A DNA stretch of 64,000 bases from a virus (IMGVR_UViG_2901201504_000001:32001-96000); one strand, 5' to 3'. Positions 31,447 through 61,399 are shown, counted from the first letter of the stretch. A program made the numbers and translations. Notes: a model not told the origin generated them from the sequence alone.

Positions 31447-31538
31447 TAATAAATAAAAGTTAAATAAACTAATATAAATATATTGTTTTATATTTATATA
31501 GATGGTATAATTTAGTTAATAAATAAAAGTTAAATAAA
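31447..31538 (+). promoter_or_regulatory. SigA promoter flanked by a perfect 22-bp direct repeat (repressor operator)
   Basis: TAATAAATAAAAGTTAAATAAA at 31447 and 31517; TTGTTT(31483)-N17-TATAAT(31506) with extended TG. Confidence 0.7.
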
Positions 31539-33422: not shown

Positions 33423-33494
33423 TATAACAACAAGGCTGCAGTTTTCCAAGGTTCTGCATAACAAAAACCTTTGATTATTCCAGGAGGTAATATA

Positions 33495-35105
33495 ATGTTA
33501 AATAATCCAGATTTTTATCCGACTCCAATAAACTTGATTCATAAAATGTTAGGAAAGTTAGATTTCAGATACATAAAATCAGTTTTAGAGCCAAGTGGAG
33601 GCAAAGGAGACTTATTGGAAGCTATAACAAAGCAGTTTTCATATAACAGTCGTAATAGTAAAAAACAGTCATATGATATTGATACAATCGAAATAGATGA
33701 GAATTTACAGCACATTCTGAAAGGTAAAGGTTTCAGGCTAGTACATGATGATTTTTTAACTTATCAATCTTTCAAACGTTATAGTGCTATTATTGCAAAT
33801 TTTCCTTTTTCTCAAGGCGATAAACATCTGTTAAAGGCCATAGAAATGCAGTCAAACGGTGGGGAAATAGTAGCTTTGATTAACGCTGAAACATTGATGA
33901 ATCCATACAGTAACACAAGAAAAGAACTGGTTCAGAAGCTAACAGACTTAAATGCTGAAGTAGAATATATAGAATCTGCTTTTATAAATTCTGATCGCTC
34001 TACAAATGTAACAGTTGCCTTAATTTACATATCAATATCGAAAAATGAATATAACAGCGTGATACTTAACGAACTGAAGAAAGAAGAACTACAAGAATCT
34101 AATAATCAATATAACAGTCGTGAGCTAGTTGATTCGGATTTTATAAAAGGAATTGTACAACAGTATAATTATGAAGTAAAAGCCGGTTTAAAGCTCATAG
34201 AAGAGTATAACAGCCTTACTCCGTACATGTTGCAGAGTTTTAAGGATAACAGCTCGCCTGTATTAAAATTGACACTAGATTACAATGATGAGAGTAGCAG
34301 CTTAGAAAATTCATATATAAAAAGAATCAGAGCGAAATACTGGAATGCATTATTTTCTAATGATCAATTTATGGGACTGTTTACAAGTAATTTGAAGCAG
34401 AAGTATTTAGAGCAAGTTGAGGAATTAAAGGACTATGACTTTTCTTTCTATAACATTTACACTTTAAGAATTCAAATTAGTAAAGAAATGGTACAAGGTG
34501 TAGAAGATACAATACTGAGTCTTTTTGAAGAGTTCAGCCATAAACATTATTATGATGAATCATCAAAAAACATCCATTTATATAACGGTTGGAAAACTAA
34601 CAAATCATATAAGATTAATAAAAAAGTAATTATCCCTTTAAATGGTTTTAATGGTTGGTTTGATAGAGCGTATCGCCCTACTGACTACAGGGTATCAGAC
34701 AAATTAAAGGACATAGAGAAAGTATTTAACTATTTAGATGACGGACAAACTGAAGAAATTGATATAGCAGATACTTTAAAAATGGCCGAACATTATCAGG
34801 AATCAAGAAAAATTGATCTTAAATATTTCTATATTACATTCTATAAAAAGGGAACTTGTCATATTGAATTTAAGAATATGGAACTTTTACATAAATTTAA
34901 CCTCTATGGATCGCAGCGTAAAGGATGGCTTCCTCCTTCATACGGGAATGTTAAATACAGTGATATGACAAGTGAAGAAAGAGAAGTAATTAATCAATTT
35001 GAAGGTGAGAAATCATATAGCAGAGTTGTTAGTAATAAAGCTTATTACATTGTTGAATCAGGGGATATATTAAAACTTACAGGAGGAAATCAAAAGGCTG
35101 TATAA
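33495..35105 (+). CDS. N6-adenine DNA methyltransferase-like protein with DUF4942-type C-terminus
   Basis: DFYPTP, VLEPSGGKG, DFL, motif IV variant NFPF, FYKKGTCHIEF. Confidence 0.75.
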   Translation: MLNNPDFYPTPINLIHKMLGKLDFRYIKSVLEPSGGKGDLLEAITKQFSYNSRNSKKQSYDIDTIEIDENLQHILKGKGFRLVHDDFLTYQSFKRYSAIIANFPFSQGDKHLLKAIEMQSNGGEIVALINAETLMNPYSNTRKELVQKLTDLNAEVEYIESAFINSDRSTNVTVALIYISISKNEYNSVILNELKKEELQESNNQYNSRELVDSDFIKGIVQQYNYEVKAGLKLIEEYNSLTPYMLQSFKDNSSPVLKLTLDYNDESSSLENSYIKRIRAKYWNALFSNDQFMGLFTSNLKQKYLEQVEELKDYDFSFYNIYTLRIQISKEMVQGVEDTILSLFEEFSHKHYYDESSKNIHLYNGWKTNKSYKINKKVIIPLNGFNGWFDRAYRPTDYRVSDKLKDIEKVFNYLDDGQTEEIDIADTLKMAEHYQESRKIDLKYFYITFYKKGTCHIEFKNMELLHKFNLYGSQRKGWLPPSYGNVKYSDMTSEEREVINQFEGEKSYSRVVSNKAYYIVESGDILKLTGGNQKAV

Positions 35106-35485: not shown

Positions 35486-35785
35486 TTGAAAGAAAAGGAA
35501 TGGACTTATCTCATGCTTATAGTATTTACTATTTATTTATGTATTGGTCTGGTCATAGGTTATTACAGAATTAAAGATATTGATGATGTAATCGATGATT
35601 ATGAAAATGGCGAAGAAATGATGGATGAAGAATTACAGTTGTTAAATAGTTTATCTGAATTAAATAATACTGTGGGAGGTAAATCTTCTTTAGTTGTTTT
35701 TTACGTGGTACATGCTTTATTTTGGTTACCAATGGAATCAAGCTACTATTATAAAAAATTGATAAATTTCTTTAAGAAAGAGTAA
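35486..35785 (+). CDS. Membrane hypothetical protein
   Basis: Two hydrophobic segments. Confidence 0.45.
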   Translation: MKEKEWTYLMLIVFTIYLCIGLVIGYYRIKDIDDVIDDYENGEEMMDEELQLLNSLSELNNTVGGKSSLVVFYVVHALFWLPMESSYYYKKLINFFKKE

Positions 35786-35811
35786 TAAACAAGACAGAAG
35801 GGATTATTGTC

Positions 35812-35997
35812 ATGGCAACTATAAATTTCTACGATGACTTACTAGATCATTATGTACTATATGAAAATAATTACAATAGATGTAAAAGTATGATAACTAG
35901 TGCGTTTAAGTATAAATACATAACAGAAGAGGAGTATAAGTACTTAATAAATAAGTTGAATGTCAAACATGAGGAAATGATTGAAGCGAATAAATAA
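35812..35997 (+). CDS. Hypothetical protein
   Basis: 61-aa ORF with RBS. Confidence 0.45.
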   Translation: MATINFYDDLLDHYVLYENNYNRCKSMITSAFKYKYITEEEYKYLINKLNVKHEEMIEANK

Positions 35998-36082
35998 AGA
36001 TTAAATAATTTAAAAAATAATCTTGCGCACATTTCCAACTAGTGGTAAAATGTAGTTAATAAGAAAAGATAATTAAATAAAC
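35990..36082 (+). promoter_or_regulatory. SigA promoter of mazF flanked by operator-like repeats
   Basis: TTGCGC(36023)-N17-TAAAAT(36046) with extended TG; ATAAATAAAGATTAAATAA upstream and a related copy downstream. Confidence 0.55.
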
Positions 36083-36109
36083 TAAATTTATAGAAAAGGT
36101 GTGATTGAT

Positions 36110-36460
36110 ATGATGAATGTGAAACGAGGTGATATTTACCTCGCAGACCTATCACCAGTGGTTGGATCAGAACAAGGAGGTTTGCGTCCGGTATTAATTA
36201 TTCAAAACGATATTGGCAATAGGTATAGTCCAACTGTAATTGTAGCTGCAATCACTTCTCAAATCCAAAAAGCAAAGCTTCCGACTCATGTTGAAGTAAG
36301 TAAGAGATACGGTGTAGAAAAAGATTCAGTTATTTTAGGTGAGCAGATGCGTACAATTGATAAGAAAAGATTAACAACAAATAAATTAGGCCATCTAGAC
36401 GATTACATAATGGAAAAGGTTGATATAGCAATACAAGTGAGCGTTGGGCTAGTTGGTTGA
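36110..36460 (+). CDS. mazF: MazF/PemK (EndoA-like) endoribonuclease, no adjacent antitoxin
   Basis: [59 protein letters not shown], nearly the Bacillus EndoA sequence. Confidence 0.92.
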
Positions 36461-36639
36461 TATATAGGGTAAGTTAGTAATTTACTAGACTAGATGACAA
36501 GTGAGGAAAGTGATTTTTATAAGCAACAAGGATAATGAACAAAAGGAAATGGAATACTTTGAGACGGTAGAAGATATTATTAAATTCTATCAAAAAGACA
36601 ATAAGTGTTGAAATGTAAATTTTATTAAATTTATAAGAG

Positions 36640-36840
36640 GTGAATGAAATGTTTAAACTATGTTGGATTAAGAAGAACTCTTGGGGCGAAACGGGAGGGT
36701 ATGGATGTTGTACCAAGCATGATACGATTGAAGAAATAATTAAAATTATGTCTAAATGTATCTACAATGGGGAATGGATTGAAGATAAAAATGGAAATAA
36801 ACTGGATATAGATTTAAGTAAAGTAGCAATAACAAGATAA
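36640..36840 (+). CDS. Hypothetical protein
   Basis: 66-aa ORF with RBS GAGGTG. Confidence 0.45.
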   Translation: MNEMFKLCWIKKNSWGETGGYGCCTKHDTIEEIIKIMSKCIYNGEWIEDKNGNKLDIDLSKVAITR

Positions 36841-36865
36841 AATATTTCTATTAAAGGAGTAGAAC

Positions 36866-37057
36866 ATGGAGAATAATATGAAATTAGTACATGCATTAAG
36901 TGATAATTTGGATAGATTAAAAGTTTTTAGCACAGGATATACTACCGGTAATAAAAGTGCCTTATTAGTTAGCTTTGAAGGTAATGTGTATAAAATAGAT
37001 ATTCAAAAAGTTCAAGAAGGTGAAGTTGATATAGATATAGTTGATACTTACCTGTAA
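36866..37057 (+). CDS. Hypothetical protein
   Basis: 63-aa ORF with RBS AAGGAG. Confidence 0.5.
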   Translation: MENNMKLVHALSDNLDRLKVFSTGYTTGNKSALLVSFEGNVYKIDIQKVQEGEVDIDIVDTYL

Positions 37058-37193
37058 ATCAAATAAAAGAAGTCTTTCAATGGCTTTTAACGATGCTTAT
37101 AACTTATTAAAACTAAATTAATTAATAATATAGTTATAAGTATTATTTAACAGCTATGTGAGACAAATTTATAAATTCTTAGGAGGAGAATAA

Positions 37194-37988
37194 ATGGTTA
37201 AAAGTAAAGAAAGAAGTGAGCAGTTAAGCGCTACTACGACTGAAGAAAATTTAATGGTTTTAGTCGAAAGTCGTACTATGAGGGATCAGCATGTCTATAG
37301 GGATGAAATACTTGAGAAAGTAAAATCAGTTGCATCATTAACAGATAATTTCGAAATGACATTGCAGATGGCAGCGGATTATTATGAAGTGGGTTTTGAA
37401 GCAATAAAATCTCTTATTAAGCGAAATCGAAACGAATTTAATGAATATGCTGAATTACGAATTTTAAAAGGGAAAGTGCTTAAAGAATTTAAAGCTCAAG
37501 TTCAGCTTGAACCCGACCTTAAAACAGCACCATCGTTGACATTGATTAATCGTAGAGGTTTATTACGAATAGGAATGCTTCTTACAGAATCAGATGTTGC
37601 GAAAACAGTCAGAAATTATTTGCTTAATGTTGAGGAAGTTTCAACAGATGAACAGAAAAGATGGGCTGTAGAAAGGGAAATTAGTAAACGTGAAAGAAGA
37701 CAACTAACAGATGCAATTCAAGAGTTCTATTCTGGTACTCTAAAAGAAGGCATGGAGTATGCTACATTTACAAATTTAGTTTATAAAGTGATTTTTGATA
37801 TGAACGCTACTCAATTAAAAGCCCTCTATGAATTAGGTAAGAATGAGCCTTTACGTGATTCATTTACTACAGAAGATTTACGAAAGGTTGTAAAAGCAGA
37901 GAAAACAATTTCGGTATTGTTATTACTTGGGAAGGACTACAGTGAAATTAAATCTGAGCTTTTAGCTAACGCAGAAAAGTATCAATAA
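37194..37988 (+). CDS. Phage antirepressor-like DNA-binding protein
   Basis: MAADYYEVGFEAIKSLIKRNRNE...RRGLLRIGMLLTESDVAKTVRNYLL; C-terminal RRQLTDAI...YATFTNLVYK. Confidence 0.55.
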   Translation: MVKSKERSEQLSATTTEENLMVLVESRTMRDQHVYRDEILEKVKSVASLTDNFEMTLQMAADYYEVGFEAIKSLIKRNRNEFNEYAELRILKGKVLKEFKAQVQLEPDLKTAPSLTLINRRGLLRIGMLLTESDVAKTVRNYLLNVEEVSTDEQKRWAVEREISKRERRQLTDAIQEFYSGTLKEGMEYATFTNLVYKVIFDMNATQLKALYELGKNEPLRDSFTTEDLRKVVKAEKTISVLLLLGKDYSEIKSELLANAEKYQ

Positions 37989-38035
37989 GCATTATACGGC
38001 AAGTTGGATAATCTGCTTCTGATTTGCCGTAGACA

Positions 38036-38302
38036 ATGATCTATAGGAGGTATTTTATGAATTATAAAGATATCTTAGATGATGAAGGAGAAATCTTTGT
38101 TGCTGGCCAGTGGTTTAAAGCTGAAGATTTTCAAGAAGTACAAAGTGCTCAGAATGAAGAAGTTGAAACAAATACATATAGCACTGACGAGCTACTAGAT
38201 CAATATAGGGATTACATGACATTACATAAGATGTTTGATGATATAGAGTATAAGGAAGCTGCTGAGAGCGTTATAAGACAGTTAAGAAGTAAATTAGTAT
38301 AA
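38036..38302 (+). CDS. Hypothetical protein
   Basis: RBS AGGAGG before internal ATG. Confidence 0.5.
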   Translation: MIYRRYFMNYKDILDDEGEIFVAGQWFKAEDFQEVQSAQNEEVETNTYSTDELLDQYRDYMTLHKMFDDIEYKEAAESVIRQLRSKLV

Positions 38303-38532
38303 AATTAAGGATTTTAAGAAACATGTACTTAGATATTACGGAAATTGGATAACGGATGAAGAAATACAAATATCTCTAGAGATTGCAATATGCATTTTTG
38401 AAGGTGAACAAATTTTTGTAGTGGATGCTCCATTATGTATACATGCAACTGCTTATTTAGATGAACATCTGATACAATATTATTAGTTGGAAATAAACGA
38501 ATAAAACAAGTCTTTTATTTGGAGGTAATAAA

Positions 38533-38844
38533 ATGAGCCTAAGAGTTGAATTAGAGAAGTACATATATCAAAGCAATGAATCGTTATTAAATATATTTAA
38601 GAATGACCTTAAAGGAGAAGAGTATTTTAACGATTTTATCAAATTGCTAAAGGAAGAGTTAAAATCTCATGAATTATTTAACGATGTTTCTTTATCTAAA
38701 TTCAAAAATGGTATAGAAGGTGAAAATAGTTTCATTAGGTTTATGTCATTGATTAGATCAGTATTTGTCCCAGAAGAAGTGACTGCAATGTCAAAAGAAC
38801 ATTTTAATAGAATACAAGAAGAAATCAAAGGCATTTTAGAATAA
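38533..38844 (+). CDS. Hypothetical protein
   Basis: RBS GGAGG; bounded by junction palindromes. Confidence 0.55.
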   Translation: MSLRVELEKYIYQSNESLLNIFKNDLKGEEYFNDFIKLLKEELKSHELFNDVSLSKFKNGIEGENSFIRFMSLIRSVFVPEEVTAMSKEHFNRIQEEIKGILE

Positions 38845-38874
38845 ATCGAATATTTTAATTGGAGGAAGATTATT

Positions 38875-39426
38875 TTGACTGATAGAGAAAATGCTATTGA
38901 GAACATAATGAATTTTTTAGAAGATAAAGAGAAAAGAATATTATTAATTAGAGGTTATGATAACAAGGCTAAGATTAGAGCTTCTCTTTCTTGTTTGAAT
39001 AGGGTGTTTAGCAAGGGAATCATAAGAACAGGTTTAATGTCTGATATTTCAGATCATATTAATTGTGCTTTTAATAGAGATATTTTACCTCATCAAGTCA
39101 AATCGACAACAAGTTATAAAATAGGGAAGATGAATGTTAGGATCAATAGTTATGTAAATCATACACAATCTAATCCAAAAGGAAATGAAAATACGTTTAC
39201 TTTATTTTTGCCTGTAGAAAACGTATTGAAAAAGGATAGTAGGTATAATGATTTTATAGATGATTTAAATAATTCTGGTTCAGCTAAAGTTATTCTTATT
39301 ACCACTAATGAATGGGGAATAAATAATTGGGATATTGAAGCTCATGTTGATGAAGTTTTCTTTTATAAAGTAGAAAACGATAATCCGCAACTAATGAGTA
39401 ATCTAAGAAATAACGGTGCATTATAG
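38875..39426 (+). CDS. Hypothetical protein, degenerate P-loop-like alpha/beta fold
   Basis: ILLIRGYDNKAK and VILITTN segments; RBS GGAGG. Confidence 0.5.
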   Translation: MTDRENAIENIMNFLEDKEKRILLIRGYDNKAKIRASLSCLNRVFSKGIIRTGLMSDISDHINCAFNRDILPHQVKSTTSYKIGKMNVRINSYVNHTQSNPKGNENTFTLFLPVENVLKKDSRYNDFIDDLNNSGSAKVILITTNEWGINNWDIEAHVDEVFFYKVENDNPQLMSNLRNNGAL

Positions 39427-39473
39427 GGAGTTTAAAGTAGTACAAGTAAATAAAATGACAAAATTAAAATGAA

Positions 39474-39656
39474 ATGGTGGGAGTTTCTATGTTAACTAAA
39501 GTTATGACTGAAGAAGAAATGCAACAATATGCCAATGAAAAAGAGGGTTATGAGGTTGAGTTTTTACCAGAGTATGCATTGAAATTAGGATATGAAGCAA
39601 CATTAGAAGAAGATTCAATTGGTGAAGAATACTATATTTTTAACAAGATAAAATAA
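39474..39656 (+). CDS. Hypothetical acidic protein
   Basis: 60-aa ORF. Confidence 0.4.
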   Translation: MVGVSMLTKVMTEEEMQQYANEKEGYEVEFLPEYALKLGYEATLEEDSIGEEYYIFNKIK

Positions 39657-39780
39657 CTATTTCATAAGTAGTTCATAAATAAAATCACCTTAAATATTTT
39701 CTTAAAATTATCACTTGAAATTTTATATCAAATAGTTTGAAATATATGTAGAATGTTTGTTTGTATAATTATGAAAAGAG

Positions 39781-40623
39781 GTGATGTCTTTGTGGAATGC
39801 CAAAATATTTATGGAGAAGTTTAAAAGTTGTTTGGCTTTTTCAGCAACTTTAGGTGGTTTTCTTTTAATATTTTATCCTCCTGGTGATCTTGATACTAAA
39901 CGAGGAATAGCTGCAGTAGTTGCGTTTATTATTGCGAATGTCTTAGCCGCAATAATTTTAGCAAAGCCAAAGAAAAAAATAAGTTTGGATATTTCGAAAA
40001 AGGTCAAGTTAAATATATTTTACGGTGACATATTTGATTCATCGTCAAATATTGTAATTCCCGTAAATGAATACTTTGATACGCTCGTAGACAATGTTCC
40101 TGATACTGTTATTTCAAGCAGAACACTACATGGTAAATTTGTTAAGCTGATTTATGGTGGTAACGTTGCTGAATTAGATGTTGCGATTGAAAATGCATTA
40201 AGCAGTGTTGATTGTAACATTAACCCCACTAGGAAGAAAGGTAAAACTAAAAAGTACAACATCGGTCAAACTATATGCATTAGTAAGGACGGTAAGAAAT
40301 ACAGTCTATTAGCATTTAGTAAGTTCGATGAATACAATAAAGCCTATCTGTCCAAAAAGAACTATCAGTTGGTAATACAAGATTTATTTGACCATCTCCA
40401 TGTTATTTCGCAAGGTGAAGAAGTAAACATGCCATTAATCGGAGCTGGTCAATCTGGAATCAACTTAACCAAGCAAGAACTTTTAGAGTACTTAATCTTC
40501 TCACTAAAAATGTGCGATGATCTTACATTAAGTGGAGGAATTAATATCGTATTGCATGAAAGCTTAAGAAAAGAACTTGATTTAAACAAAATTGAGTTTA
40601 TTTCAAAAAGAGGAGGATTTTAA
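39781..40623 (+). CDS. thsA: Thoeris type II ThsA (2 TM + macro domain)
   Basis: Two N-terminal TMs; GDIF, VIPVNEYFDT, LHGKF, MPLIGAGQSG macro motifs; adjacent to a TIR gene. Confidence 0.85.
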   Translation: MMSLWNAKIFMEKFKSCLAFSATLGGFLLIFYPPGDLDTKRGIAAVVAFIIANVLAAIILAKPKKKISLDISKKVKLNIFYGDIFDSSSNIVIPVNEYFDTLVDNVPDTVISSRTLHGKFVKLIYGGNVAELDVAIENALSSVDCNINPTRKKGKTKKYNIGQTICISKDGKKYSLLAFSKFDEYNKAYLSKKNYQLVIQDLFDHLHVISQGEEVNMPLIGAGQSGINLTKQELLEYLIFSLKMCDDLTLSGGINIVLHESLRKELDLNKIEFISKRGGF

Positions 40624-40624
40624 A

Positions 40625-41179
40625 ATGGCATACAGAAATGGAACATACGTGGCGTTCAATGGGTGTGGTACAACGAATCCAACAGAAAGTGATATGAAAT
40701 ATTATGGATTATTGCAAAAATGGAATAAAGAATACGGGGCAGATTTAAATTTCAGCGATAGTCACGATAAAACATACAGTGTACGAGATTCTAGTAAAAC
40801 AGAAACATTGAAACGAAGATTGCTTGAAAGGTTGAAGAATTCAAAACATATAGTACTTATCGTTACTGAAAATTCAAGTTGGAATCGAGGTCTTCTTAAT
40901 TGGGAAATTGAAAAAGCGGTTGAGCAATATAAAATCCCATTGATTGTTGCACATACTACTTGTTCTGGATTTATATCGAGCCCTAAGCAATTAGCCCATT
41001 TGTTACCAGAGGAATTTAAGAACCAAGTGGCTAAAGGAAATATTAAAGCTATCCACGTTCCGTTTAGGAAAAGAGCAATTGGCGCAGCAATTCGTCAATT
41101 TGGTATCAATAATCAAATTCCAGATACAGCTTTTGACTATTATATTCAAAAAGCATATATTGATTGGGATTACAGATAA
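40625..41179 (+). CDS. thsB: Thoeris ThsB TIR-domain protein
   Basis: MAYRNGTYVAF, SVRDSS, LKRRLLERLKNSK, NWEIEKA (catalytic Glu), IPLI. Confidence 0.88.
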   Translation: MAYRNGTYVAFNGCGTTNPTESDMKYYGLLQKWNKEYGADLNFSDSHDKTYSVRDSSKTETLKRRLLERLKNSKHIVLIVTENSSWNRGLLNWEIEKAVEQYKIPLIVAHTTCSGFISSPKQLAHLLPEEFKNQVAKGNIKAIHVPFRKRAIGAAIRQFGINNQIPDTAFDYYIQKAYIDWDYR

Positions 41180-41286
41180 AAGATTGCTTTTATAATAGAG
41201 ATTACATTAAATATAGAGCGAGTTATTACAACAAGACATGCTTCATCGCTCTTAGTTATTACATTACGAAACTAGGAGGGATTTTC

Positions 41287-41466
41287 ATGAGAGCAAGTGG
41301 GGTTAGATTAAGAACAATAGGTGCTATACCTTGTTCTGGCATTAAACATAGAAGTACAATTATTAATGATTTAAAGAGACAGTTTGGGAAGGTAAGGATA
41401 AATATTTGTGATGATCTAGTAATGTATGAAGTAAGTGAAGAAAAAGAAAGTAATTTTTTAAATTAA
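41287..41466 (+). CDS. Hypothetical protein
   Basis: RBS AGGAGG before ATG (MRASGVRLR...). Confidence 0.45.
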   Translation: MRASGVRLRTIGAIPCSGIKHRSTIINDLKRQFGKVRINICDDLVMYEVSEEKESNFLN

Positions 41467-41491
41467 AAAGTAAATTAATATAAAAAACCTA

Positions 41492-41520
41492 TTGACTACA
41501 GATAATATTTTCTATATAAT
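41492..41520 (+). promoter_or_regulatory. SigA promoter upstream of the aimR operon
   Basis: TTGACT-N17-TATAAT with operator-like AAAAAGTAAATTAAT upstream. Confidence 0.7.
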
Positions 41521-41572
41521 TCTAAATATAGGAAATAAATAGAAAATAGTTGATGTGGTGAGGTGCTGAGTA

Positions 41573-41812
41573 TTGGAGAGTTGTAAACAGCTATATCAGA
41601 TAGATGGTAGTATTGCTGCTATCATATCATTCCCAATTAATGAATCAAATGTGGATCTTGCATTAAAAACTTTGAATTTAACAGAAGAAGAATTAACAGA
41701 AGATTTTTACGATTTATGCACTAAAAACAAATTAATAATTAAAGATGTAAAGAAATTCAATTGTTCTTACAGAAAATCCTATATGAAAATATTAACTGAT
41801 TCGATTTCATAA
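41573..41812 (+). CDS. Hypothetical protein upstream of aimR
   Basis: 79-aa ORF, RBS GAGGTG. Confidence 0.45.
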   Translation: MESCKQLYQIDGSIAAIISFPINESNVDLALKTLNLTEEELTEDFYDLCTKNKLIIKDVKKFNCSYRKSYMKILTDSIS

Positions 41813-41836
41813 GGCAAAAAAGAGAGGGGTTATCTT

Positions 41837-43000
41837 ATGTGCTTATTGAAAAAAATACTAAACAAAAGAGCATCTGATGACGATACTCTCATTAAAAATT
41901 TAGCCAAGGAAATAGGGTATTCAGATACTCCAATAAGAAATTTTAAAAACAAACCAGAAAAAGAGCTTGATAGTTTTGAATCGTTAGTAAAAATGGTTAG
42001 ATATTTAGAACCTGATAGAGAAATTGAAATTATGATTGATTACTCAAACCATTTAAGATTAAATTTCAATACTGCTCGATATATGCTAGATTATCTATCT
42101 GTAAATAGACAACTAGATGAGATGAATAGCTTAATTGAAAAGATGAAAGAATCATCAAATAAAGAAAGTGCGCTTTGGGCTAAAGCATATTCATTGTTAT
42201 ATTTATGGCAAACACAATCTTTCAAGTTAGATTTAGACAAGTTTTTGAATGAAGTAAATTATTTAGTTACAAAAAACATACCTTCATTAGAAATTTTACA
42301 AAGATTGTTGAAATGTTATATATATGATCAAAAGCAATATCATAAACAAGTACTAGAGATATCTGAAGAAGTTAAATTCCTTATTGAGAAAGTAGAAGAT
42401 AATTATTTAAAAAGGGTTTATTCAGTTAAAATCAATGAAATTACATCTAATCTTAAATTATGGGTTTACAATGATTTTGATGGAGCACGAGAAGATGCAA
42501 ATAAAGTTATAGAAGCTGATTTAGGAATTGGATTTACAGCTTATGCAAAATATACAATTGCTCAATCATATTTTTATACTTCATATGATAAATCTAGAGA
42601 GTATTTCATTGATTGTATTAGACTGTATGAAACTATGAATAGGAAAGAAGTTGCAGAAGATGTTGTCGGTTCTCTTGAGTTTTTAGAAATATTTTGGGAT
42701 CAGAAAAAGCAAGATAGTAGTTTTATATTAAAAGAGAATGAGCTATATATAAAAGCTAAATTAAACATAGATATTACGGAAGACTTACATAATTTTAATG
42801 ACGAAAATAAACAAGGATTTATATTATTTCTTAAAGGTATAAATGAAAATAATACTGATTTTTTATTTAAGTCTATGATTCAAAATCTTAAAGGGGGTGA
42901 TGCCTTTAGTGCCAACGCAGCTAGACTGGAACTTCAGAATAGAGGTTTCAGTGAAGTAGTATTAAATGAACTAATAAAGATTCACGACAATCAAAAGTAA
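41837..43000 (+). CDS. aimR: Arbitrium receptor AimR (HTH + TPR, RRNPP family)
   Basis: 387 aa; N-terminal HTH (LAKEIGYS...KELDSF), ARYMLDY, helical repeats, C-terminal GDAFSA; followed by a short secreted peptide gene. Confidence 0.85.
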   Translation: MCLLKKILNKRASDDDTLIKNLAKEIGYSDTPIRNFKNKPEKELDSFESLVKMVRYLEPDREIEIMIDYSNHLRLNFNTARYMLDYLSVNRQLDEMNSLIEKMKESSNKESALWAKAYSLLYLWQTQSFKLDLDKFLNEVNYLVTKNIPSLEILQRLLKCYIYDQKQYHKQVLEISEEVKFLIEKVEDNYLKRVYSVKINEITSNLKLWVYNDFDGAREDANKVIEADLGIGFTAYAKYTIAQSYFYTSYDKSREYFIDCIRLYETMNRKEVAEDVVGSLEFLEIFWDQKKQDSSFILKENELYIKAKLNIDITEDLHNFNDENKQGFILFLKGINENNTDFLFKSMIQNLKGGDAFSANAARLELQNRGFSEVVLNELIKIHDNQK

Positions 43001-43029
43001 GGATAGGTGCTTTAAAGGAGGTGATGAAA

Positions 43030-43137
43030 ATGAAGAAATTAGCACTTATCGCATTAGCAGTTGTAGTAATTTTAGCAGTAGGTACATTATTTGGCGGAGA
43101 TTTTTCTGTCGCAGCTCGTCCACCGATGGGCGGGTGA
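43030..43137 (+). CDS. aimP: Arbitrium pro-peptide AimP: MKKLALIALAVVVILAVGTLFGGDFSVAARPPMGG
   Basis: RBS AAGGAGGTG; signal peptide plus short C-terminal peptide directly after aimR. Confidence 0.85.
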   Translation: MKKLALIALAVVVILAVGTLFGGDFSVAARPPMGG

Positions 43138-43164
43138 TTCAAAATTTAATACTTAATTAAATTA

Positions 43165-43197
43165 AAAGACGTTATTCCATTCAGGAGTAACGTCTTT
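43165..43197 (+). terminator. Hairpin between aimP and aimX
   Basis: AAAGACGTTA...TAACGTCTTT inverted repeat. Confidence 0.65.
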
Positions 43198-43264
43198 CAT
43201 AATTTTACGAAGAAATACCGATTTTTTAAAAATGAAAAATTGGAACTTTAAAGGAGAAATGATC

Positions 43265-43426
43265 ATGTTAACTAATCTAAATCAAATCACACAAACAAAT
43301 AGTAACTTTTATGAAGCGATGAAGAATGGATATCTTAGTACTGGGGAACTTAATCTTGAGCTTGCAAATGAATTATTGACTCCGGAGAATGAAGCCTTTG
43401 AAACTACTGAAATATTTCTAAAATAA
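43265..43426 (+). CDS. aimX: AimX, MazE C-terminal mimic (53 aa)
   Basis: YEAMKNGYLSTGELNLELANE..PENEA aligns by eye with the MazE/EndoAI C-terminus (MRRGYMEMAKINLNISSE..AECEA); position after aimP. Confidence 0.75.
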   Translation: MLTNLNQITQTNSNFYEAMKNGYLSTGELNLELANELLTPENEAFETTEIFLK

Positions 43427-43436
43427 GTATACTCTT

Positions 43437-43469
43437 AAAAAGCAATTCATTATCTGAGTTGCTTTTTTT
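43437..43469 (+). terminator. Terminator after aimX
   Basis: AAAAAGCAATTC...GAGTTGCTTTTTTT. Confidence 0.65.
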
Positions 43470-43491
43470 GGTAATTTTTTGTTATTAAGTA

Positions 43492-43520
43492 TTGATTTTA
43501 TTAATACGCCATATTATAAT
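43492..43520 (+). promoter_or_regulatory. SigA promoter
   Basis: TTGATT-N17-TATAAT. Confidence 0.6.
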
Positions 43521-43583
43521 GAAATTAATAAAAATTAATTAATGTAAAATATTAAAATTAAACAAAAAGAGGTTGGTGGTGAT

Positions 43584-43796
43584 ATGTCTTTTGAAAAAGA
43601 TTTTATAAGTGGTTATAAAGAATTAATGATTGAACGTGATCGAGTAATTGAAGAGGTTGAATTTATGGTCTTAGATTACATAAGGAATGTAGTAGCAGAG
43701 TATAGTCGAGAGTATTGTTATTGTATGGATGAGGAATTACTAATGAATGCTGCATCAAATGTCATTATGTCAGAGATTGAAAGAATAAGAGGATAA
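43584..43796 (+). CDS. Hypothetical protein
   Basis: 70-aa ORF after the promoter. Confidence 0.5.
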   Translation: MSFEKDFISGYKELMIERDRVIEEVEFMVLDYIRNVVAEYSREYCYCMDEELLMNAASNVIMSEIERIRG

Positions 43797-43822
43797 TTAT
43801 AAGGGAGTGATTAAGATGTGTA

Positions 43823-44212
43823 TTGCATCAAAAAGTGGGAGAGTTAGAAAGTGTGATAACAAATATTGATAATGAACGGAAAAGGCTGAATTTACTTCTG
43901 TCACAACTAGATAAAGAGTTGAATAAGCAATATCACAAAATTGAACAGGCGAATTTTAATGCAGCGGAAGGCTACTTTTTATCTAGAGAATTACAAATTA
44001 TTTTACGTAAAAGAAGGGTTGTGAAAGAAGAACTGTATACTTTAGTAAGATTAAATCAACACTTAGATGTTACCAGCGTTGTGAAGACACTTCCCAAGGT
44101 AAAAAATTGTTTGAAACAAATACATAGCGTAAAAAACACAAAAAAGAAGGATGAATGGAAAAAAGGTTGGAAAGATCACTTTAGAGCTGAAGAAATGCAG
44201 CTTCAACATTAA
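43823..44212 (+). CDS. Coiled-coil hypothetical phage protein
   Basis: YHKIEQANFNAAEGY...RKRRVVKEEL. Confidence 0.55.
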   Translation: MHQKVGELESVITNIDNERKRLNLLLSQLDKELNKQYHKIEQANFNAAEGYFLSRELQIILRKRRVVKEELYTLVRLNQHLDVTSVVKTLPKVKNCLKQIHSVKNTKKKDEWKKGWKDHFRAEEMQLQH

Positions 44213-44308
44213 TGTCAAAGTTTTATTGGAAGTTAAAAATCTGAATTTTATATGTAATATAATAATATTAAAAACTAATACACTAATATAAAACGATGGA
44301 GGGATGAA

Positions 44309-45379
44309 ATGTTTACTAAAGATGCTTACATGATTGAAGTAAATAATAAATATATTTCCAGGAGAAGACATTCAGAGTATGATAACTTAGTTATTCTGAA
44401 TTATACCGAAAATGCCACTTATGAATGAAGGTGGAATGATATTACTCTATCAGCTAGAGGATTGATTATTGATGAAAAGACTGGAGAAGTAGTTGCAAGG
44501 CCGTTTCCTAAATTTTTTAATTACGGTGAGTTGCCGGAATACGAATCAGACATTCCATTCCATGAAACACCTGAATTCACAGTAAAGCAAGATGGTTCTT
44601 TAGGAATTAGTTATAAAGTAAATGGATATACATATTGGTCTACGAGAGGCTCATTTGAGTCAGAACAAGCTAAAGCAGCTCAAGTTATATGGGATAGAAA
44701 ATATGCAAATGTGGATATTCCAGATGAATTAACACTTTTAGTAGAGATAATTGATCCTGCAACAAGGGTGGTAGTTGATTATAAAGGTTTATCAGATTTA
44801 ATTATCATAGGTGCAGTAAATAGGTTTAATGGTTATGACTATAGCTATAAAGAATTGAAGGAATTAGGAAATAAATTAGGTATGATTGTTACGGAACAAA
44901 TCCCTCTTACTATACAAGAAGCTGTTCGATTGAAGGAAACAATAGATTATAACAGTGAAGGTTGGGTGCTACGCTGGTCTAATGGGAAACGTTTAAAAAT
45001 TAAGGGCAATAACTATCTAGATATACATAAGTTAGCATATGGATTATCTCAGAAGATGAAGACTGAATTTTGGAAAGATGAAAATATTGAAGAGTTAATA
45101 CTCAAAATGCCAGAAGAATTCAGAGAGGAAATTGAAAAATTCAATGATAGTTTAAATATCCATCTAAGCATTTTAATAAATACAGTTACTTCTTACGTAA
45201 ACACTTGTAAAGAGATGAGTAAAGATCGCAAAGAATTTGCTATGAATGTTAATATACACACTCCCAAAGAAATTAGGTATCTGATATTTAAAGAATATGA
45301 TAAAAAGCTAGATTCAAAAGTATATAGAGAGCATATCTACAAGAACTATCTAAATTACATTAATGGAGGAATAGGATGA
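44309..45379 (+). pseudogene. T4 Rnl1-like RNA ligase with in-frame TGA at codon 40
   Basis: ATG 44309 with RBS GGAGG; TGA at 44426-44428; ARGLII, ARPFPKFFN, KQDGSLG, STRGSF, EGWV, LKIK motifs. Confidence 0.8.
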
Positions 45380-46356
45380 ATAAATTAATAATGTTAGTTG
45401 GTTTACCAGCAAGTGGTAAAAGCACATTAGCGGAAAAATTATCGAAAGAATATGATGCAGAAATCGTCTCTTCAGATGAAATTAGAAAAGAGTTATTTAA
45501 TGATATTAATGATCAAACTAATAATGATACAGTTTTCAATGTAATGCATGAAAGAGTTATTAAACTCCTCAATGCCGACAGAAGTGCTATTTATGATGCA
45601 ACAAACTTAAATAGAAAGCGGAGAAAACACTTAATCAATCATGTATTTAAAGCGGATCAAAAGATTGTTTACTACATTAATGAAAGTATTGGAACTGTGT
45701 TATGTAGAGACAGTGAACGTGAAAGAAATGTAGGAGAGAAAATAATAAGTAAAATGTATAAAAATCTTCATATTCCAGTTGAAGGAGAAGGATGGGATAA
45801 GGTAATTTACGTTAATTACTACAATGATGGGTTGTTGAGATTAAAAAAGCACTATGAAGAAGTTATCACTACTGTACATTCTCATGATGAACTGTTTGGA
45901 TATCTAACTGCATATATTAGTGAGTTCAGTGAAATTCTAAATTTACCACAGGATTCTAGCTATCATTCCTTTTCAGTAAGTAGGCATACATATTATGTAC
46001 ATAACTATATTCTAGAGAACTATCATAATGAAGATAGATTAATTTTATTATGGGCAAGTTTATTTCATGATATTGGAAAATCATATTGTAAATCATTTAC
46101 TAACTTTAAGGGAGAAGAAACAAAATATGCGAATTTCATAGGACATGAATATGTTTCTTCTCAGATAGCAGCAAAACGATTAGGGATGTTAGGATACGAT
46201 GAAAACTTTATTAAAAAAATTGTAACCTTAGTACAATTCCACATGATGCCGATGAGAGCTAGTGAAAAGAAAATGAATGAAATCAATAGGCTAATTGGAG
46301 ATGATTTATATGCTAAGTTAATGATACTTAGTGAAGCAGATACGCAGGCTAAATAA
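45376..46356 (+). CDS. Polynucleotide kinase fused to an HD phosphohydrolase (Pnkp-like RNA end healing)
   Basis: GLPASGKST, SSDEIR, DATN; HD domain HSFSVSRHT, LFHDIGK, GHEYVS, HM, EAD. Confidence 0.85.
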   Translation: MNKLIMLVGLPASGKSTLAEKLSKEYDAEIVSSDEIRKELFNDINDQTNNDTVFNVMHERVIKLLNADRSAIYDATNLNRKRRKHLINHVFKADQKIVYYINESIGTVLCRDSERERNVGEKIISKMYKNLHIPVEGEGWDKVIYVNYYNDGLLRLKKHYEEVITTVHSHDELFGYLTAYISEFSEILNLPQDSSYHSFSVSRHTYYVHNYILENYHNEDRLILLWASLFHDIGKSYCKSFTNFKGEETKYANFIGHEYVSSQIAAKRLGMLGYDENFIKKIVTLVQFHMMPMRASEKKMNEINRLIGDDLYAKLMILSEADTQAK

Positions 46357-46385
46357 AAAGTCGATGTTATTAGGAGGTAGGGAAT

Positions 46386-46520
46386 ATGTTTTTATGTGAG
46401 AAATGTTTGGATGATAATTTTAAGAATTTCGCAATACCTTTTAGTCGTGGAAAATGTGAATTCTGTGAAAAAGTTAAAGTATGTGTAGATATTCCAAGTA
46501 AGTTTCTAGTGAAGAGATAG
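46386..46520 (+). CDS. 44-aa Zn-finger microprotein
   Basis: CEKC...CEFC; RBS AGGAGG. Confidence 0.5.
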   Translation: MFLCEKCLDDNFKNFAIPFSRGKCEFCEKVKVCVDIPSKFLVKR

Positions 46521-46549
46521 ACACGATTTTATTCTAATTAAGAACGATT

Positions 46550-46759
46550 ATGCGAAGGAATGGTGTGACTATGAGTAGTGAAAGAACGGTGAAAGAATTA
46601 AAAGAGGACATCAAACGAGAAATAGAAGCAACTCGGACTTTAAGAGAAACTGGAAGCGGATTTTACTATGAATATAAAGATTGGCAGTCAAAAAAGGATT
46701 GTGAGAGATTAGAGAAATTATTAAATGAAATTATCTATTTCGAATGGGAGTATTGTTGA
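46550..46759 (+). CDS. Hypothetical protein
   Basis: 69-aa ORF. Confidence 0.4.
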   Translation: MRRNGVTMSSERTVKELKEDIKREIEATRTLRETGSGFYYEYKDWQSKKDCERLEKLLNEIIYFEWEYC

Positions 46760-46825
46760 GTGATTCTGTCATATAGCGTAGAAACTAAATAAAAGAACAA
46801 TTTCATTTTAAGGGTGGGGTGAAAA

Positions 46826-47206: not shown

Positions 47207-47237
47207 ATTAATAAATTTTATAAAGGGAGATAATTGA

Positions 47238-57936: not shown

Positions 57937-58953
57937 ATGGGAGAAGCAAGAAAGTTAAGGGATCATTATATATATGATGATATTATTGCTTTTTTAAATT
58001 TAGCTCATTATAGTTATAATACAAAATTGTCATATGAAAAAGGAATTAGAGACTTTTTTAGAGAAATTAAAAATAAAGATATTGAGCATCTTACTCAGGA
58101 TGATATCCCCATAATGAAAAAAGAGGTGGAATTATTTAGAACACTGTTGAAAGAACGTGGCTATCATAATAATACAATTAATAATAAAGTAGCAGGATTA
58201 AGAAGACTATATACTGAATTTAAAGCGAATAAATATAATGTTGATGTAGATTTTTTTAGTATTATAAAATCATTACCAAGTGACACAGATTCTTATGATC
58301 CTTTTACTATAGATGAAGCAATGCAATTATATGAGTTAGCTTTAGATGAAAGGCATGATGGTGAGATAAAGTCTAAATTCATTTTGTTTTGCCTGGATAC
58401 TTGTATAAGAAAAAGTGCTGCATTAAAACTAAAATGGTCAGATTTCAAGGTTATAAATGAAAAAGAAGTAAGAATAATTGCTATTGATAAAGGTAATAAA
58501 GACTTTAGAGCGATGATTCATTATGATTTTTATAAAGAATTGTTGGAACTTAAAACTGATTCTGATCTAGTTTTTAATTTGAAACTACCTACTGTAGATA
58601 AAATGATATCTAGATTAGTCACAAAACTAAATGTAGATTCTGAAAGAAACTTAACATTTCACAGTTTAAGAAAAGCAGGAATTGAGTTTAAGTATAGATA
58701 TACTGGTGATATTAAAGTAGCACAAAAAGCAGCTAATCACAGTGATTTTTCGTTAACTTTCAATACTTATGTTAGTACTGAAGATTATGGGGTAATGGGA
58801 GCTGTATCATTGCTACATAAAAATGAAGAATCTATCTTAAACCAATTAAACTTTGAAGAATTAAAAAAACTTATGAATAGCCTAGAGCCAGATGTATTTC
58901 TAAGAGTGGAAAAGATGGCTAGAGAAATGTTCTCGAAGTGTTTGAAAGATTAA
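57937..58953 (+). CDS. Tyrosine recombinase (YopP-like), catalytic residues intact
   Basis: N-terminal SAM-like domain; TCIRK (R), DKGNK (K), FHSLRK (HxxR), NHS (H), NTY (Y). Confidence 0.85.
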   Translation: MGEARKLRDHYIYDDIIAFLNLAHYSYNTKLSYEKGIRDFFREIKNKDIEHLTQDDIPIMKKEVELFRTLLKERGYHNNTINNKVAGLRRLYTEFKANKYNVDVDFFSIIKSLPSDTDSYDPFTIDEAMQLYELALDERHDGEIKSKFILFCLDTCIRKSAALKLKWSDFKVINEKEVRIIAIDKGNKDFRAMIHYDFYKELLELKTDSDLVFNLKLPTVDKMISRLVTKLNVDSERNLTFHSLRKAGIEFKYRYTGDIKVAQKAANHSDFSLTFNTYVSTEDYGVMGAVSLLHKNEESILNQLNFEELKKLMNSLEPDVFLRVEKMAREMFSKCLKD

Positions 58954-59048
58954 TTTTATTAACATTTTACTAAGTGATACATATAAAGTACAATTAGTAA
59001 TGTGTTGTATATATGATAAATATAATAAGAAGTGAATGAGGTGTTTTT

Positions 59049-60389
59049 TTGTATATTGATAGAGAAGAACTTGAAGAGAGATTGACACCTTTCCTTGAAC
59101 AAGTTAGAAACAATAACCATGCAGTGGATTTAATTTCTAAGAAAATGTTAGATTTCAACATCCTTGAAGGAGATACTATAAATTACTTTAATCAACCAGA
59201 AACTATCGCTGACATGGATTTGAGAGCTTTATGTCTTTTTACAATGTTTGTACAAGAACATGTTAGAGATTCATCTTTAGATATAACTGAAATTTTTACT
59301 CCTAATGATATTAAAGAAGCGAAGCAGTATAATGGAGCATTTGAAATTGAAAAAGAAGAAGATATACTTCCTCTAATAATCGAAGGCGCAGATGCTTTAG
59401 ATAGTACTACAATTTTGACTAAGCTAAATATCCAACAAATCAATAAAATGCTGGATAAAGAGATACTGTATTATGATTTTAATACACAGAGAGAAGCTAA
59501 GTGGAAGAGAAAAGGTAGCACGATCATTCAAACTCCAAAAATTAACCAAAAATCAGTTAAGGAAATTTCTAAATGCATATTAGATGACACTTTAGTTAAG
59601 ACAGTCCTAACATTTAATGCGACTATTGGTAGTAGTGATGAAGAAAATGAATTAATATACAACGAGAAGAAAAGAACAGTTACAATTACTAAAGGAACGA
59701 AAATAGCAATTATTGATGGATTCCATAGGGTTAAAGGAATTCAAATGGCATTGGCTAAAAATCCACATAAAGAGTTTGTTTTCCCTGTACTATTAACAAA
59801 TTATTCTGTTGAAAAAGCAGCTCAATATTTAGGGCAAATTTCTAAAGCAAATCCAATTTCTAAGACTCGTGCTGCTGAATTATTAAAATCAAGAAAAGCT
59901 GATGAGGTAGTACAGTATTTAAAAGAGAGTTCAGAGCTAAAAGGAAGAATTTCTCAAACAGAGAGAATACATTCCATTAATAATGAAATAGTCACTTATA
60001 ATATTTTAGCTGATACTATTGAAAAAGAATTCAAACTAAAAACAAGAATAGATGTAATAAAGGTTGGAAAGTATTTAAGCGAATTCTTTGATATTTTAAT
60101 GGGCTTGTACAGCGATGCCTTTATTGATAATGTTGTGGAAACTAAAAATAAATCATTAATTAATGATAACAATATGTTTGTTGGTTATATAGTGCTTGCT
60201 AGAAGATTGTACGAGCAAGATAAGCCTATTGATATAAATGTAATTGAAGGGATAATGTCTAATATAGATTTTAGCTATGACAATCCACTATGGGAAGAGT
60301 TGGCATTAACGAAAGATGGGAAGAAGAATCATCGTACTCATGTAGTAAGAACAAATATAATGAAATATTTCAATCGATTAGAAATATAA
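59049..60389 (+). CDS. YopQ-like DndB/ParB-fold (DGxHR) protein
   Basis: NTQRE, IIDGFHRVKG; located between two integrase-fold genes as in SPbeta. Confidence 0.75.
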   Translation: MYIDREELEERLTPFLEQVRNNNHAVDLISKKMLDFNILEGDTINYFNQPETIADMDLRALCLFTMFVQEHVRDSSLDITEIFTPNDIKEAKQYNGAFEIEKEEDILPLIIEGADALDSTTILTKLNIQQINKMLDKEILYYDFNTQREAKWKRKGSTIIQTPKINQKSVKEISKCILDDTLVKTVLTFNATIGSSDEENELIYNEKKRTVTITKGTKIAIIDGFHRVKGIQMALAKNPHKEFVFPVLLTNYSVEKAAQYLGQISKANPISKTRAAELLKSRKADEVVQYLKESSELKGRISQTERIHSINNEIVTYNILADTIEKEFKLKTRIDVIKVGKYLSEFFDILMGLYSDAFIDNVVETKNKSLINDNNMFVGYIVLARRLYEQDKPIDINVIEGIMSNIDFSYDNPLWEELALTKDGKKNHRTHVVRTNIMKYFNRLEI

Positions 60390-60406
60390 AATAATGAGGG
60401 ATATAT

Positions 60407-61399
60407 ATGAACTTAAGTCATTTTGACTTTTATAATAGAGAATTGAAAGAAAAGTTTTTAGAACAATATAATGAAGAAACTGCAAGAACATATGCGTATA
60501 GTTTAGCTCGTTCAAGATTTGAGGAAGAATTGTTTGGGAAAGATTTATATAATTTTAATTTAGAACAAATCTCTAAGATATTACCTAAATTTAAGGCGTG
60601 CAATCTAAATGGTGTAAAAAAACATGCATTAATTATTGATCTATACATGACATGGGCTGCTGAGAATGGTTATAGAAATAGTAATATAAGTGTTTTAAAA
60701 GGTATGGATAATGAATTCTACGAGCGTTTTGTTATGAACAAGAAGATGTTTATAAATGAAGACGAATTAAAAGAATATGAAGATACGCTTGTGAATTATC
60801 AAGATAAGTTAACTTTGAGATTACCATATGAAGGTTTGACTGGTTACAAAATGTCCTTGATGAGAAATTTAAACATAAAGTGTTTTACTGACAAACCTAA
60901 TGTAATTAGATCAAAAGATGATAGAAAAGGCGAAAGAGAAATTGAAGTTAGTGACAGATGTATTGAATTTATTAAAAAAGGTATTGCAGAGGATATCTAT
61001 TATGCTAAAAACGGTGAATCTGAAGGATATATTAAAGAATTACCATTGACTAGGAATAACTATGTAATAAGAATTAATGCAAAAAAGAATAAGGAAAATT
61101 CAGAAATTGATACACATAACCTTCACAGAAGATTGAAAGCTATTAAAGAAGGTATAGATTTACCTGCAATAACATTTAAATCATTGGAGAGATCAGGAAT
61201 GATTGCGTTTGCAAAAGATTTATTTGTTGAAAGAGGAAAATTAGGAAAAGAAGAGTTCAATATTATTGGTGATCGATATGATTTAAGTAAATTACATGCA
61301 GGAGGAAAAGAGTATCATAATACAACTATGATGAAGACATATATTAACAGGGAAAATATTTTAGAGTTATATGGAATTGACATAGGTGAAAATAATTAA
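60407..61399 (+). CDS. yopR: YopR/MrpR-like master repressor (catalytically degenerate integrase fold)
   Basis: FYNRELKEKFL, FGKDLYNF, LPYEG, FKSLERSGMI without canonical R/HxxR; synteny. Confidence 0.75.
   Translation: MNLSHFDFYNRELKEKFLEQYNEETARTYAYSLARSRFEEELFGKDLYNFNLEQISKILPKFKACNLNGVKKHALIIDLYMTWAAENGYRNSNISVLKGMDNEFYERFVMNKKMFINEDELKEYEDTLVNYQDKLTLRLPYEGLTGYKMSLMRNLNIKCFTDKPNVIRSKDDRKGEREIEVSDRCIEFIKKGIAEDIYYAKNGESEGYIKELPLTRNNYVIRINAKKNKENSEIDTHNLHRRLKAIKEGIDLPAITFKSLERSGMIAFAKDLFVERGKLGKEEFNIIGDRYDLSKLHAGGKEYHNTTMMKTYINRENILELYGIDIGENN

Follow-up and report, generated by a model that had tools for sequence, protein, structure and literature searches.

In phage phi3T, the output of the arbitrium system modulates a host toxin, MazF. 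The genes run aimR, aimP, terminator, aimX, and AimR is described as an antiterminator acting on the terminator between aimP and aimX (PMC10769878). The C-terminal region of MazE binds MazF, and phi3T AimX and YosL are likewise reported to bind and neutralise it (bioRxiv 10.1101/2023.04.27.537455; PMC10769878), an antitoxin activity described as lost from both proteins when the tyrosine of their GY motif is mutated (bioRxiv 10.1101/2023.04.27.537455). The operators of this phage group (SPBRE/SroF operators of SPbeta and phi3T) are described as long, read by a monomer and scattered over promoters, including those of aimR, yopM and a toxin gene (PMC10516654; bioRxiv 10.1101/2025.11.27.690993). 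How general the link between arbitrium and MazF is, and how far the phage depends on it, is at stake in the locus described here. We analysed a window of 64,000 nucleotides (nt), meaning the whole stretch IMGVR_UViG_2901201504_000001:32001-96000, which represents bases 32001-96000 of a 137,119-bp IMG/VR provirus record. The provirus is a large prophage of the SPbeta family in the broad sense, in which AimR has roughly the relative position known from SPbeta, and it encodes a mazF gene of its own together with an arbitrium module. We propose that its genes form a self-contained counterpart of the phi3T arbitrium-MazF switch, a reading to which we assign a probability of roughly 0.45.

Compared with phi3T, the locus (Table 1) has the same order of arbitrium genes, a small AimX that mimics the MazE C-terminus and has the conserved GY, a second mimic of YosL type before nrdI, an SroF-type repressor with repeated asymmetric operator-like sites, and phage mRNAs rich in the MazF site. 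It differs from phi3T in that the toxin gene is phage-borne here and host-borne there, in that AimR is only ~25% identical to the AimR proteins of SPbeta and phi3T, and in that YosL is cut to 60 amino acids (aa), without the N-terminal domain. In addition, the sroD, sroE and sroF homologues lie 14.5 kb 3' of aimX and are not adjacent to it, two unrelated small open reading frames (ORFs) stand directly after aimX instead, and no sroA, sroB or sroC is recognisable. That a phage with an AimR so diverged nevertheless encodes a MazE-mimic AimX and YosL, and the toxin as well, points to an arbitrium-MazF link that is old and central to the family.

Two further kinds of MazF locus and one further kind of arbitrium locus were compared. 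The toxin has the length of that of the chromosomal ndoAI-ndoA operon of Bacillaceae (4ME7) and is 72-80% identical to chromosomal NdoA/MazF proteins; unlike that operon, the locus has no upstream mazE and no ribbon-helix-helix (RHH) DNA-binding antitoxin, and mazF has a putative promoter of its own with a phage operator-like site. Phage-borne toxins of the PemK fold, often with no canonical antitoxin in front, are described for PHROG 1936, staphylococcal cluster B phages (PMC6507118) and Psychrobacillus phage Perkons, and the present mazF resembles these; unlike such MazF/PemK morons, this genome adds two MazE mimics and an arbitrium module, and the 37 other viral records with MazF all lacked AimR. 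Finally, a small AimR-controlled AimX after aimP is also described for the extended arbitrium, in which AimX is an antirepressor that acts on AimC (Kabel et al., bioRxiv 10.1101/2025.11.23.689978). That system as described has a divergent aimC/aimL pair of helix-turn-helix (HTH) genes, whereas here there is no such pair, the downstream genes are all co-directional, AimX is homologous to MazE and the repressor is of SroF type; an AimC-type antirepressor role for AimX was therefore rejected.

Table 1. Features of the mazF and arbitrium loci and of related genes, in window coordinates unless stated otherwise
Feature	Position	Strand	Basis or remark
Operator-like copy at mazF	35989..36008	+	2 mismatches to the 20-mer, both in the core; 15 nt 5' of the mazF -35
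Putative SigA promoter of mazF: TTGCGC, 17 nt, extended -10 TG-n-TAAAAT	36023..36051	+	Read from the sequence
Degenerate second operator-like copy, core split by a 4-nt insertion	36057..36083 (about)	+	Family D4, 80% ungapped identity to 31438-31472; after the -10
mazF, predicted EndoA/NdoA-type endoribonuclease, 116 aa	36110..36460	+	PF02452, EndoA structures
66-aa ORF after mazF, phrog_18229	36640..36840	+	PHROGs match; retained in the related prophage
aimR, predicted arbitrium receptor and antiterminator	41837..43000	+	PF22871 E 1e-41; NF038310 164 bits, cut-off 70
aimP, predicted pro-peptide with hydrophobic leader	43021..43137	+	Likely start 43030; ends ...ARPPMGG
Terminator hairpin between aimP and aimX	43165..43197	+	14-bp stem
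aimX, putative MazE C-terminal mimic	43232..43426	+	Likely start 43265, giving 53 aa, as called in the relative
Promoter TTGATT, 17 nt, TATAAT, with operator-like copy (3 mismatches)	43492..43542	+	5' of the ORFs in the sroA/sroB position; copy at 43523-43542
70-aa ORF in the sroA (yopM) position	43584..43796	+	No family match
129-aa helical-hairpin ORF in the sroB position, phrog_32601	43823..44212	+	PHROGs; predicted model
sroD, sroE, sroF homologues (yopP, yopQ, yopR)	57937..61399	+	28-31% identity; sroF is the family repressor
YosL ortholog, 60 aa	G000:C1:128075-128257, outside the window		Directly before nrdI, as yosL in SPbeta

The product of mazF matched PF02452 with E 1.9e-35 over model positions 1-108 of 109 and aligned end to end with B. 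subtilis EndoA (4mdx/4me7; E 2e-51, ~75% identity). The gene has a ribosome-binding site, AAAAGGTG, 8 nt 5' of its ATG and is the only PemK gene in the whole provirus. In an alignment of 24 sequences R26 was invariant and T49 nearly so, and the phage protein keeps both, together with every invariant position; we take these two residues to be the counterparts of Arg25 and Thr48, the presumed catalytic pair of EndoA. When 5.8 billion proteins were searched, the nearest (P0005) was an intact protein of 115 aa, 87% identical and 95% similar, encoded by a related prophage of a second strain on a 13.8-kb contig (hereafter X2), which also has R26, T49 and the other invariant positions of the family. 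The remaining matches were chromosomal NdoA proteins at most 80% identical to the MazF of the window. The two phage genes have at least 9 nucleotide differences, 6 of the 9 listed being synonymous, and the insertions and deletions were multiples of 3 nt inside the ORF and of 1, 1, 3 and 5 nt just 3' of it, so that mazF is under purifying selection. A quick IQ-TREE run put 80 chromosomal MazFs on one side of a branch that had weak support (SH-aLRT 81), and the phage MazF outside this cluster beside three other phage copies, on an end branch of 0.41 compared with a median end branch of 0.03 for the whole tree. We thus retain the idea, first raised from the sequence alone, that the phage supplies a near-EndoA MazF itself, which proves to be intact and conserved, and disfavour the accompanying idea that this MazF may act as a dominant-negative partner, because Arg26 and Thr49 are kept and the gene is under purifying selection. 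The MazFs of B. subtilis, Listeria and S. aureus are reported to cut only U^ACAUA in vivo (bioRxiv 10.64898/2026.08.06.743204), and from this conservation the phage enzyme would be expected to have the same specificity.

As in the SPbeta type of arbitrium, aimR is followed, here after 21 nt, by a short pro-peptide gene (aimP, 35-38 aa), a terminator, which is expected to be the target of AimR antitermination, and a small aimX ORF. aimX has a ribosome-binding site (AAAGGAG) 8 nt 5' of position 43265, and a weak hairpin with a run of T was spotted by eye after the gene. AimX matched the NCBIfam MazE profile NF041459 with E 1.3e-5, below its equivalog cut-off, and phrog_21769, the family to which SPbeta YosL belongs. 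In an alignment of AimX, the YosL-like protein and 16 chromosomal MazEs, seven positions of the C-terminal helix (M, G, Y, N, E, E and A) did not vary. Pairwise, AimX was 41% identical to phi3T AimX over 29 aa (E 4e-4 without composition correction); a phmmer search with AimX against the PDB gave chance matches only and no MazE match at E <= 10, and tblastn against phages gave no match at E <= 1. The YosL-like protein matched EndoAI (4me7_E) with E 6e-5, phi3T AimX (8anv_C) with E 0.0024 and the AimX of the window with E 7e-11 (19 of 37 residues identical). Both phage mimics end in ...ETTExFLK, and host MazE ends in ...TVERLVSGG. The likeness of AimX to the MazE C-terminus, noticed from the sequence alone, was thus borne out: AimX is homologous to the C-terminal helix with which MazE binds MazF, including the essential tyrosine, and AimX and the YosL ortholog would both be expected to bind the phage MazF. 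The presence of the YosL-type mimic modifies two parts of the sequence-only reading: AimX keeps its place as a candidate gate for MazF but is not the sole candidate, and MazF, which had been called an orphan, is unpaired only locally, because a second MazE-like mini-protein is encoded elsewhere in the provirus.

Of an AT-rich, asymmetric 20-mer, AATAAATAAAAGTTAAATAA, the window holds 9 copies with at most 3 mismatches (at 15749, 16019, 25340, 27786, 31448, 31518, 35989, 43523 and 62447), compared with 0.51 expected; none of 100 shuffles reached 9. Its 13-nt core (at most 1 mismatch) occurred 18 times in the provirus versus 4.4 +/- 2.1 times in simulated genomes. All 8 perfect core copies were intergenic, lay 20-630 nt 5' of a same-strand ORF and were oriented with transcription; an extended -10 promoter lies between the perfect copies at 31448 and 31518, and good copies also stand 5' of the operon that contains the YosL ortholog. 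By analogy with the SroF/MrpR operators, the SPBRE element of SPbeta (PMC10516654), the repeat is likely to be the operator of the SroF-type repressor, whose gene corresponds to the ORF at 60407-61399. The promoter proposed for mazF (TTGCGC at 36023-36028, TG-n-TAAAAT at 36043-36051) looks plausible, and the operator-like copy in front of it makes a case of moderate strength that mazF would be under repressor control.

We then counted the MazF site, as TACATA, on the sense strand of 187 provirus ORFs and found 135 sites, compared with 70 expected from synonymous-codon shuffling (z 9.7). TACATA ranked first among 60 hexamers of the same composition, of which the next two (z 4.2 and 3.6) overlap it, and the antisense strand of the same ORFs had 56 sites. 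The 5-mer of the MazF site gave a similar result (272 versus 203 expected, z 6.6, first of 30). The excess was mainly found in the rightward early and replication genes, with 110 sites versus 59.4 expected beyond 40 kb and 15 versus 11 in the first 40 kb; mazF contains a single site (36404) and aimX none. At another provirus locus with MazF and YosL, TACATA was also in excess (14 versus 7.0), and several other MazF-bearing loci had no enrichment. The phage is built to be cut by a MazF, and the strand-specific, twofold excess of UACAUA offers a quantitative handle on the transcripts meant for cutting. A role for MazF in host shutoff with an immune phage was rejected, because the phage ORFs are enriched in the site and not depleted.

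In the circuit that we propose, the phage MazF, as a UACAUA-specific endoribonuclease, would be expressed, upon infection or induction, from a promoter of its own and would cut the site-rich early and lytic mRNAs of the phage, which would favour lysogeny. When AimP is scarce, AimR would read through the terminator after aimP, and the resulting AimX, whose 53 aa mimic the C-terminal helix of MazE, would occupy the RNA groove of the MazF dimer and so allow the lytic programme. The short YosL ortholog, encoded before nrdI, would keep the MazF of both phage and host silenced once the replication genes are on. Both the repression of mazF in the lysogen and the effect of mazF on lysogeny are parts of the proposal that we infer. 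The circuit is supported by the comparison with X2, since mazF and aimR-aimP-aimX travel together and the Thoeris and RNA ligase/kinase genes do not. X2 has mazF, aimR-aimP-aimX and the two following ORFs in collinear order and is ~94% identical to the window over 41176-44214, and its AimX shares 50 of 53 residues with that of the window; the Thoeris block (38519-41176) is replaced there by other DNA (2609 letters at the Thoeris place), as are the RNA ligase/kinase genes (44214-46370). Such a phage would offer a natural, host-independent system of three genes (mazF, aimX, yosL) for dissecting how MazF favours lysogeny.

Several observations weigh against this circuit. The -35 of the mazF promoter is weak, fitting the consensus at 3 of 6 positions, for which reason a consensus scan left this promoter unlisted; that scan found 48 promoter-like sites compared with 53 in shuffles, i.e. 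no excess. The sequence-only reading had seen a SigA promoter flanked by the operator repeat, and of this the promoter and an imperfect upstream copy stand, but the downstream copy is split by 4 nt; with two mismatches in the core of the first copy and the second broken, repression of mazF in the lysogen is uncertain. The sroE and sroF homologues contain no TACATA, which would speak for the circuit, but the scarcity of sites across sroD-F (1 in 3.35 kb) falls short of significance by itself. In SPbeta, a 20-kb segment that has no mazF is also enriched in the site (14 versus 7.8, z 2.8), so that the excess points to dependence on some MazF and not specifically on the phage's own. Moreover, host MazEF is described as a core system in Bacillus (bioRxiv 10.64898/2026.08.06.743204), and a second MazF is therefore not obviously needed. 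Four related SroF-type phages have MazF without AimR, which means that carriage of MazF does not require arbitrium.

A wider scenario can also be drawn, which we offer tentatively and hold less likely than not. In a branch of SroF-type (SPbeta-family) phages, MazF may have become part of the phage's own lysogeny machinery, with lytic transcripts loaded with its site and with private mini-antitoxins, AimX under control of the peptide quorum and YosL tied to replication. The decision would then be independent of the host, even of one that has no mazEF, and the diverged pair might serve as a weapon against related phages whose mimics fit poorly.

The last point that weighs against the circuit is also the starting point of its strongest rival. 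The neighbours of mazF, 5' of aimR, are of accessory and defence type (a methyltransferase, a PDC-M59A-like ORF and Thoeris, ThsA/ThsB), and PHROGs files the mazF family as moron, as would be expected if mazF were a defence or exclusion gene. MazF made by the prophage, or boosting the host MazF pool, would then block superinfecting phages rich in UACAUA, with AimX and YosL shielding the phage's own lytic cycle, and MazF would not be the executor of the lysis-lysogeny decision. Staphylococcal temperate phages are described as carrying mazF and pemK as accessory genes (PMC6507118), host MazEF is reported to defend against antitoxin-less mutants of phi3T and SPbeta (bioRxiv 10.1101/2023.04.27.537455), and the long MazF branch and the distinct C-termini of the mimics would fit a private toxin-antidote pair. 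What makes this explanation unlikely, in our estimate, is that an operator-like copy at the promoter points to a mazF that is silent in the lysogen and that, if phi3T and SPbeta are a guide, phage antitoxin is not expected there (AimX off at high AimP, yosL described as lytic-only; bioRxiv 10.1101/2023.04.27.537455), so that a constitutive MazF would rest on host MazE alone. Furthermore, X2 keeps mazF and swaps out Thoeris, a true defence cargo that is thereby seen to be exchangeable.

A second rival would make MazF a classical toxin with a novel antitoxin next to it, with AimX and YosL acting on host MazF only, as in phi3T. In chromosomal relatives a MazE ORF ended 1-14 nt 5' of mazF in 79 of 80 cases, the exception (L092) being at a contig end. 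Here the closest upstream ORF (35812-35997, 61 aa), the antitoxin candidate on the 5' side, ends 112 nt from the ATG of mazF, with the putative promoter in the gap; it had no family match in Pfam, PHROGs, NCBIfam or PADLOC and no relative at other phage mazF loci, and its region did not align in X2. A full-length MazE profile gave only two matches in the provirus, AimX and the YosL-like ORF, both through the C-terminal part, and the RHH part of MazE was found nowhere in the provirus. The absence of a mazE neighbour, already noted from the sequence alone, was thus borne out, and the phage mazF lacks the upstream co-transcribed antitoxin with a DNA-binding N-terminal domain that makes a canonical type II mazEF operon. 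On the 3' side, the candidates are ORFs at 36501-36611 and 36640-36840, within a stretch (36399-36857) that is retained beside mazF in X2, and in other phage lineages small conserved ORFs without Pfam or PHROGs match lie directly 3' of mazF. These comprise ORFs of 56-57 aa (L008:8408-8581, L012:8442-8612) and of 94-115 aa (L029:8359-8661, L038:8329-8646, L055:2333-2680, L061:8345-8629), and are candidate antitoxins in reverse order. The ORFs beside the present mazF had no antitoxin-family match and no likeness to those ORFs, and phrog_18229 is also found in Spbetavirus BUCT082, which has no MazF, making the 66-aa ORF an unlikely antitoxin and this rival as a whole improbable.

Searches with phi3T_92/93, yopM and yopN gave nothing significant against the provirus or against the two ORFs after aimX, and the 129-aa protein had no match among PDB sequences. 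Its AlphaFold model is a helical hairpin (pLDDT 74.5), for which Foldseek found no match at E <= 0.001 and did not list 8anv among its hits; an ESM Atlas search gave unnamed viral clusters only. The promoter, operator and ribosome-binding site before the two ORFs resemble those of SPbeta yopM. The remark of the sequence-only reading that no MazE-binding gene is recognisable next to aimX therefore stands as regards sequence and fold likeness to phi3T_92/93, but two ORFs do occupy the sroA/sroB position, and they may have a MazE-binding function. The idea that the phage MazF is a decoy, soaking up host MazE to free host MazF in place of SroA/SroB or forming inactive mixed dimers, would suit both the lack of detectable phi3T_92/93 and YopM/YopN homologues and an identity to chromosomal MazFs at which cross-binding of host MazE is plausible, but we hold it very improbable, since a pure decoy would not need the presumed catalytic residues Arg26 and Thr49 and the other invariant positions kept in both members of the lineage, and the sroA/sroB position is still filled.

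As for distribution, a PemK gene was found in none of 5 reference Spbetaviruses, so the arrangement with mazF in the phage is absent from them, in keeping with the different wiring that had been suggested. The four closest phage carriers of MazF all encode an SroF homologue, 7-21 kb after mazF. Carriage of MazF is recurrent in SroF-type large temperate phages, and the present lineage is the only one seen here to combine MazF with arbitrium; the four carriers without AimR suggest a wider, unstudied use of phage-borne MazF in the establishment of lysogeny. In a search for MazE-C-like ORFs with SPbeta YosL as positive control, only two of the other 37 carriers had such an ORF, namely G003, which had served in building the search model, and G013, a weak match. 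A megablast search of 35500-44000 against GenBank phages gave no match, i.e. no near-identical phage there, and a scan of IMG/VR with an AimR pattern and of GTDB genomes with an SroF pattern yielded no confirmed relative. The literature searched, which left aside the supplementary tables of arbitrium surveys, where one might be listed, described no MazF encoded by an arbitrium phage or an SPbeta-like one.

The family of the 129-aa protein, phrog_32601, had relatives in 16 of 38 other records, 37 of which carry MazF, the 38th being SPbeta, which had no match. In 13 of the 16 there was a single match 1-4 kb after mazF on the same strand (loci of the family: L045:9304-9921, L038:9089-9703, L061:9001-9687, L029:9133-9816, L055:5461-6141, L024:11625-12059). 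Most cases share one conserved module (mazF, an ORF of ~100 aa, the phrog_32601 protein and a sigma-70-like gene), so that only about four are independent. This uncharacterised family may be a regulator tied to phage MazF, which we note as a lead only.

In other low-GC phages (L024:7962-9404, also L023 and L033), the MazF has a long C-terminal extension (195-206 aa) and directly precedes a TPR-like protein of 182-195 aa, after which L024 has an ORF of 47 aa with a leader resembling a signal peptide; such loci may couple phage MazF to a peptide-sensing module in a second way, unrelated to the present one.

Several neighbouring genes were annotated in addition. After the arbitrium module, a block for RNA/DNA end repair (44462-49312) encodes a T4-type RNA ligase, a polynucleotide kinase-like, an RNase H-like, a nucleotidyltransferase and a DNA ligase-like protein; in principle, a ligase and a kinase might rejoin RNAs with the 5'-OH and cyclic-phosphate ends left by MazF. 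Immediately 5' of aimR lies the Thoeris pair (39781-41179), in which ThsA (PDLC00413, E 2e-57) combines a membrane segment at the N-terminus with a Macro domain and ThsB (PDLC00421, E 1e-58) has a TIR domain. Between mazF and Thoeris, an ORF of 264 aa (37194-37988) resembles phage antirepressors/regulators (phrog_2657) and the candidate defence protein PDC-M59A and is missing from X2, and an ORF of 88 aa (38036-38302) that is retained in X2 resembles the C-terminus of the germination protein YodN (NF058646, E 2e-9). Upstream of mazF, a protein of 544 aa (33471-35105) is a possible orphan methyltransferase, since its N-terminal region resembles adenine methyltransferases; it also has a DUF4942 domain.

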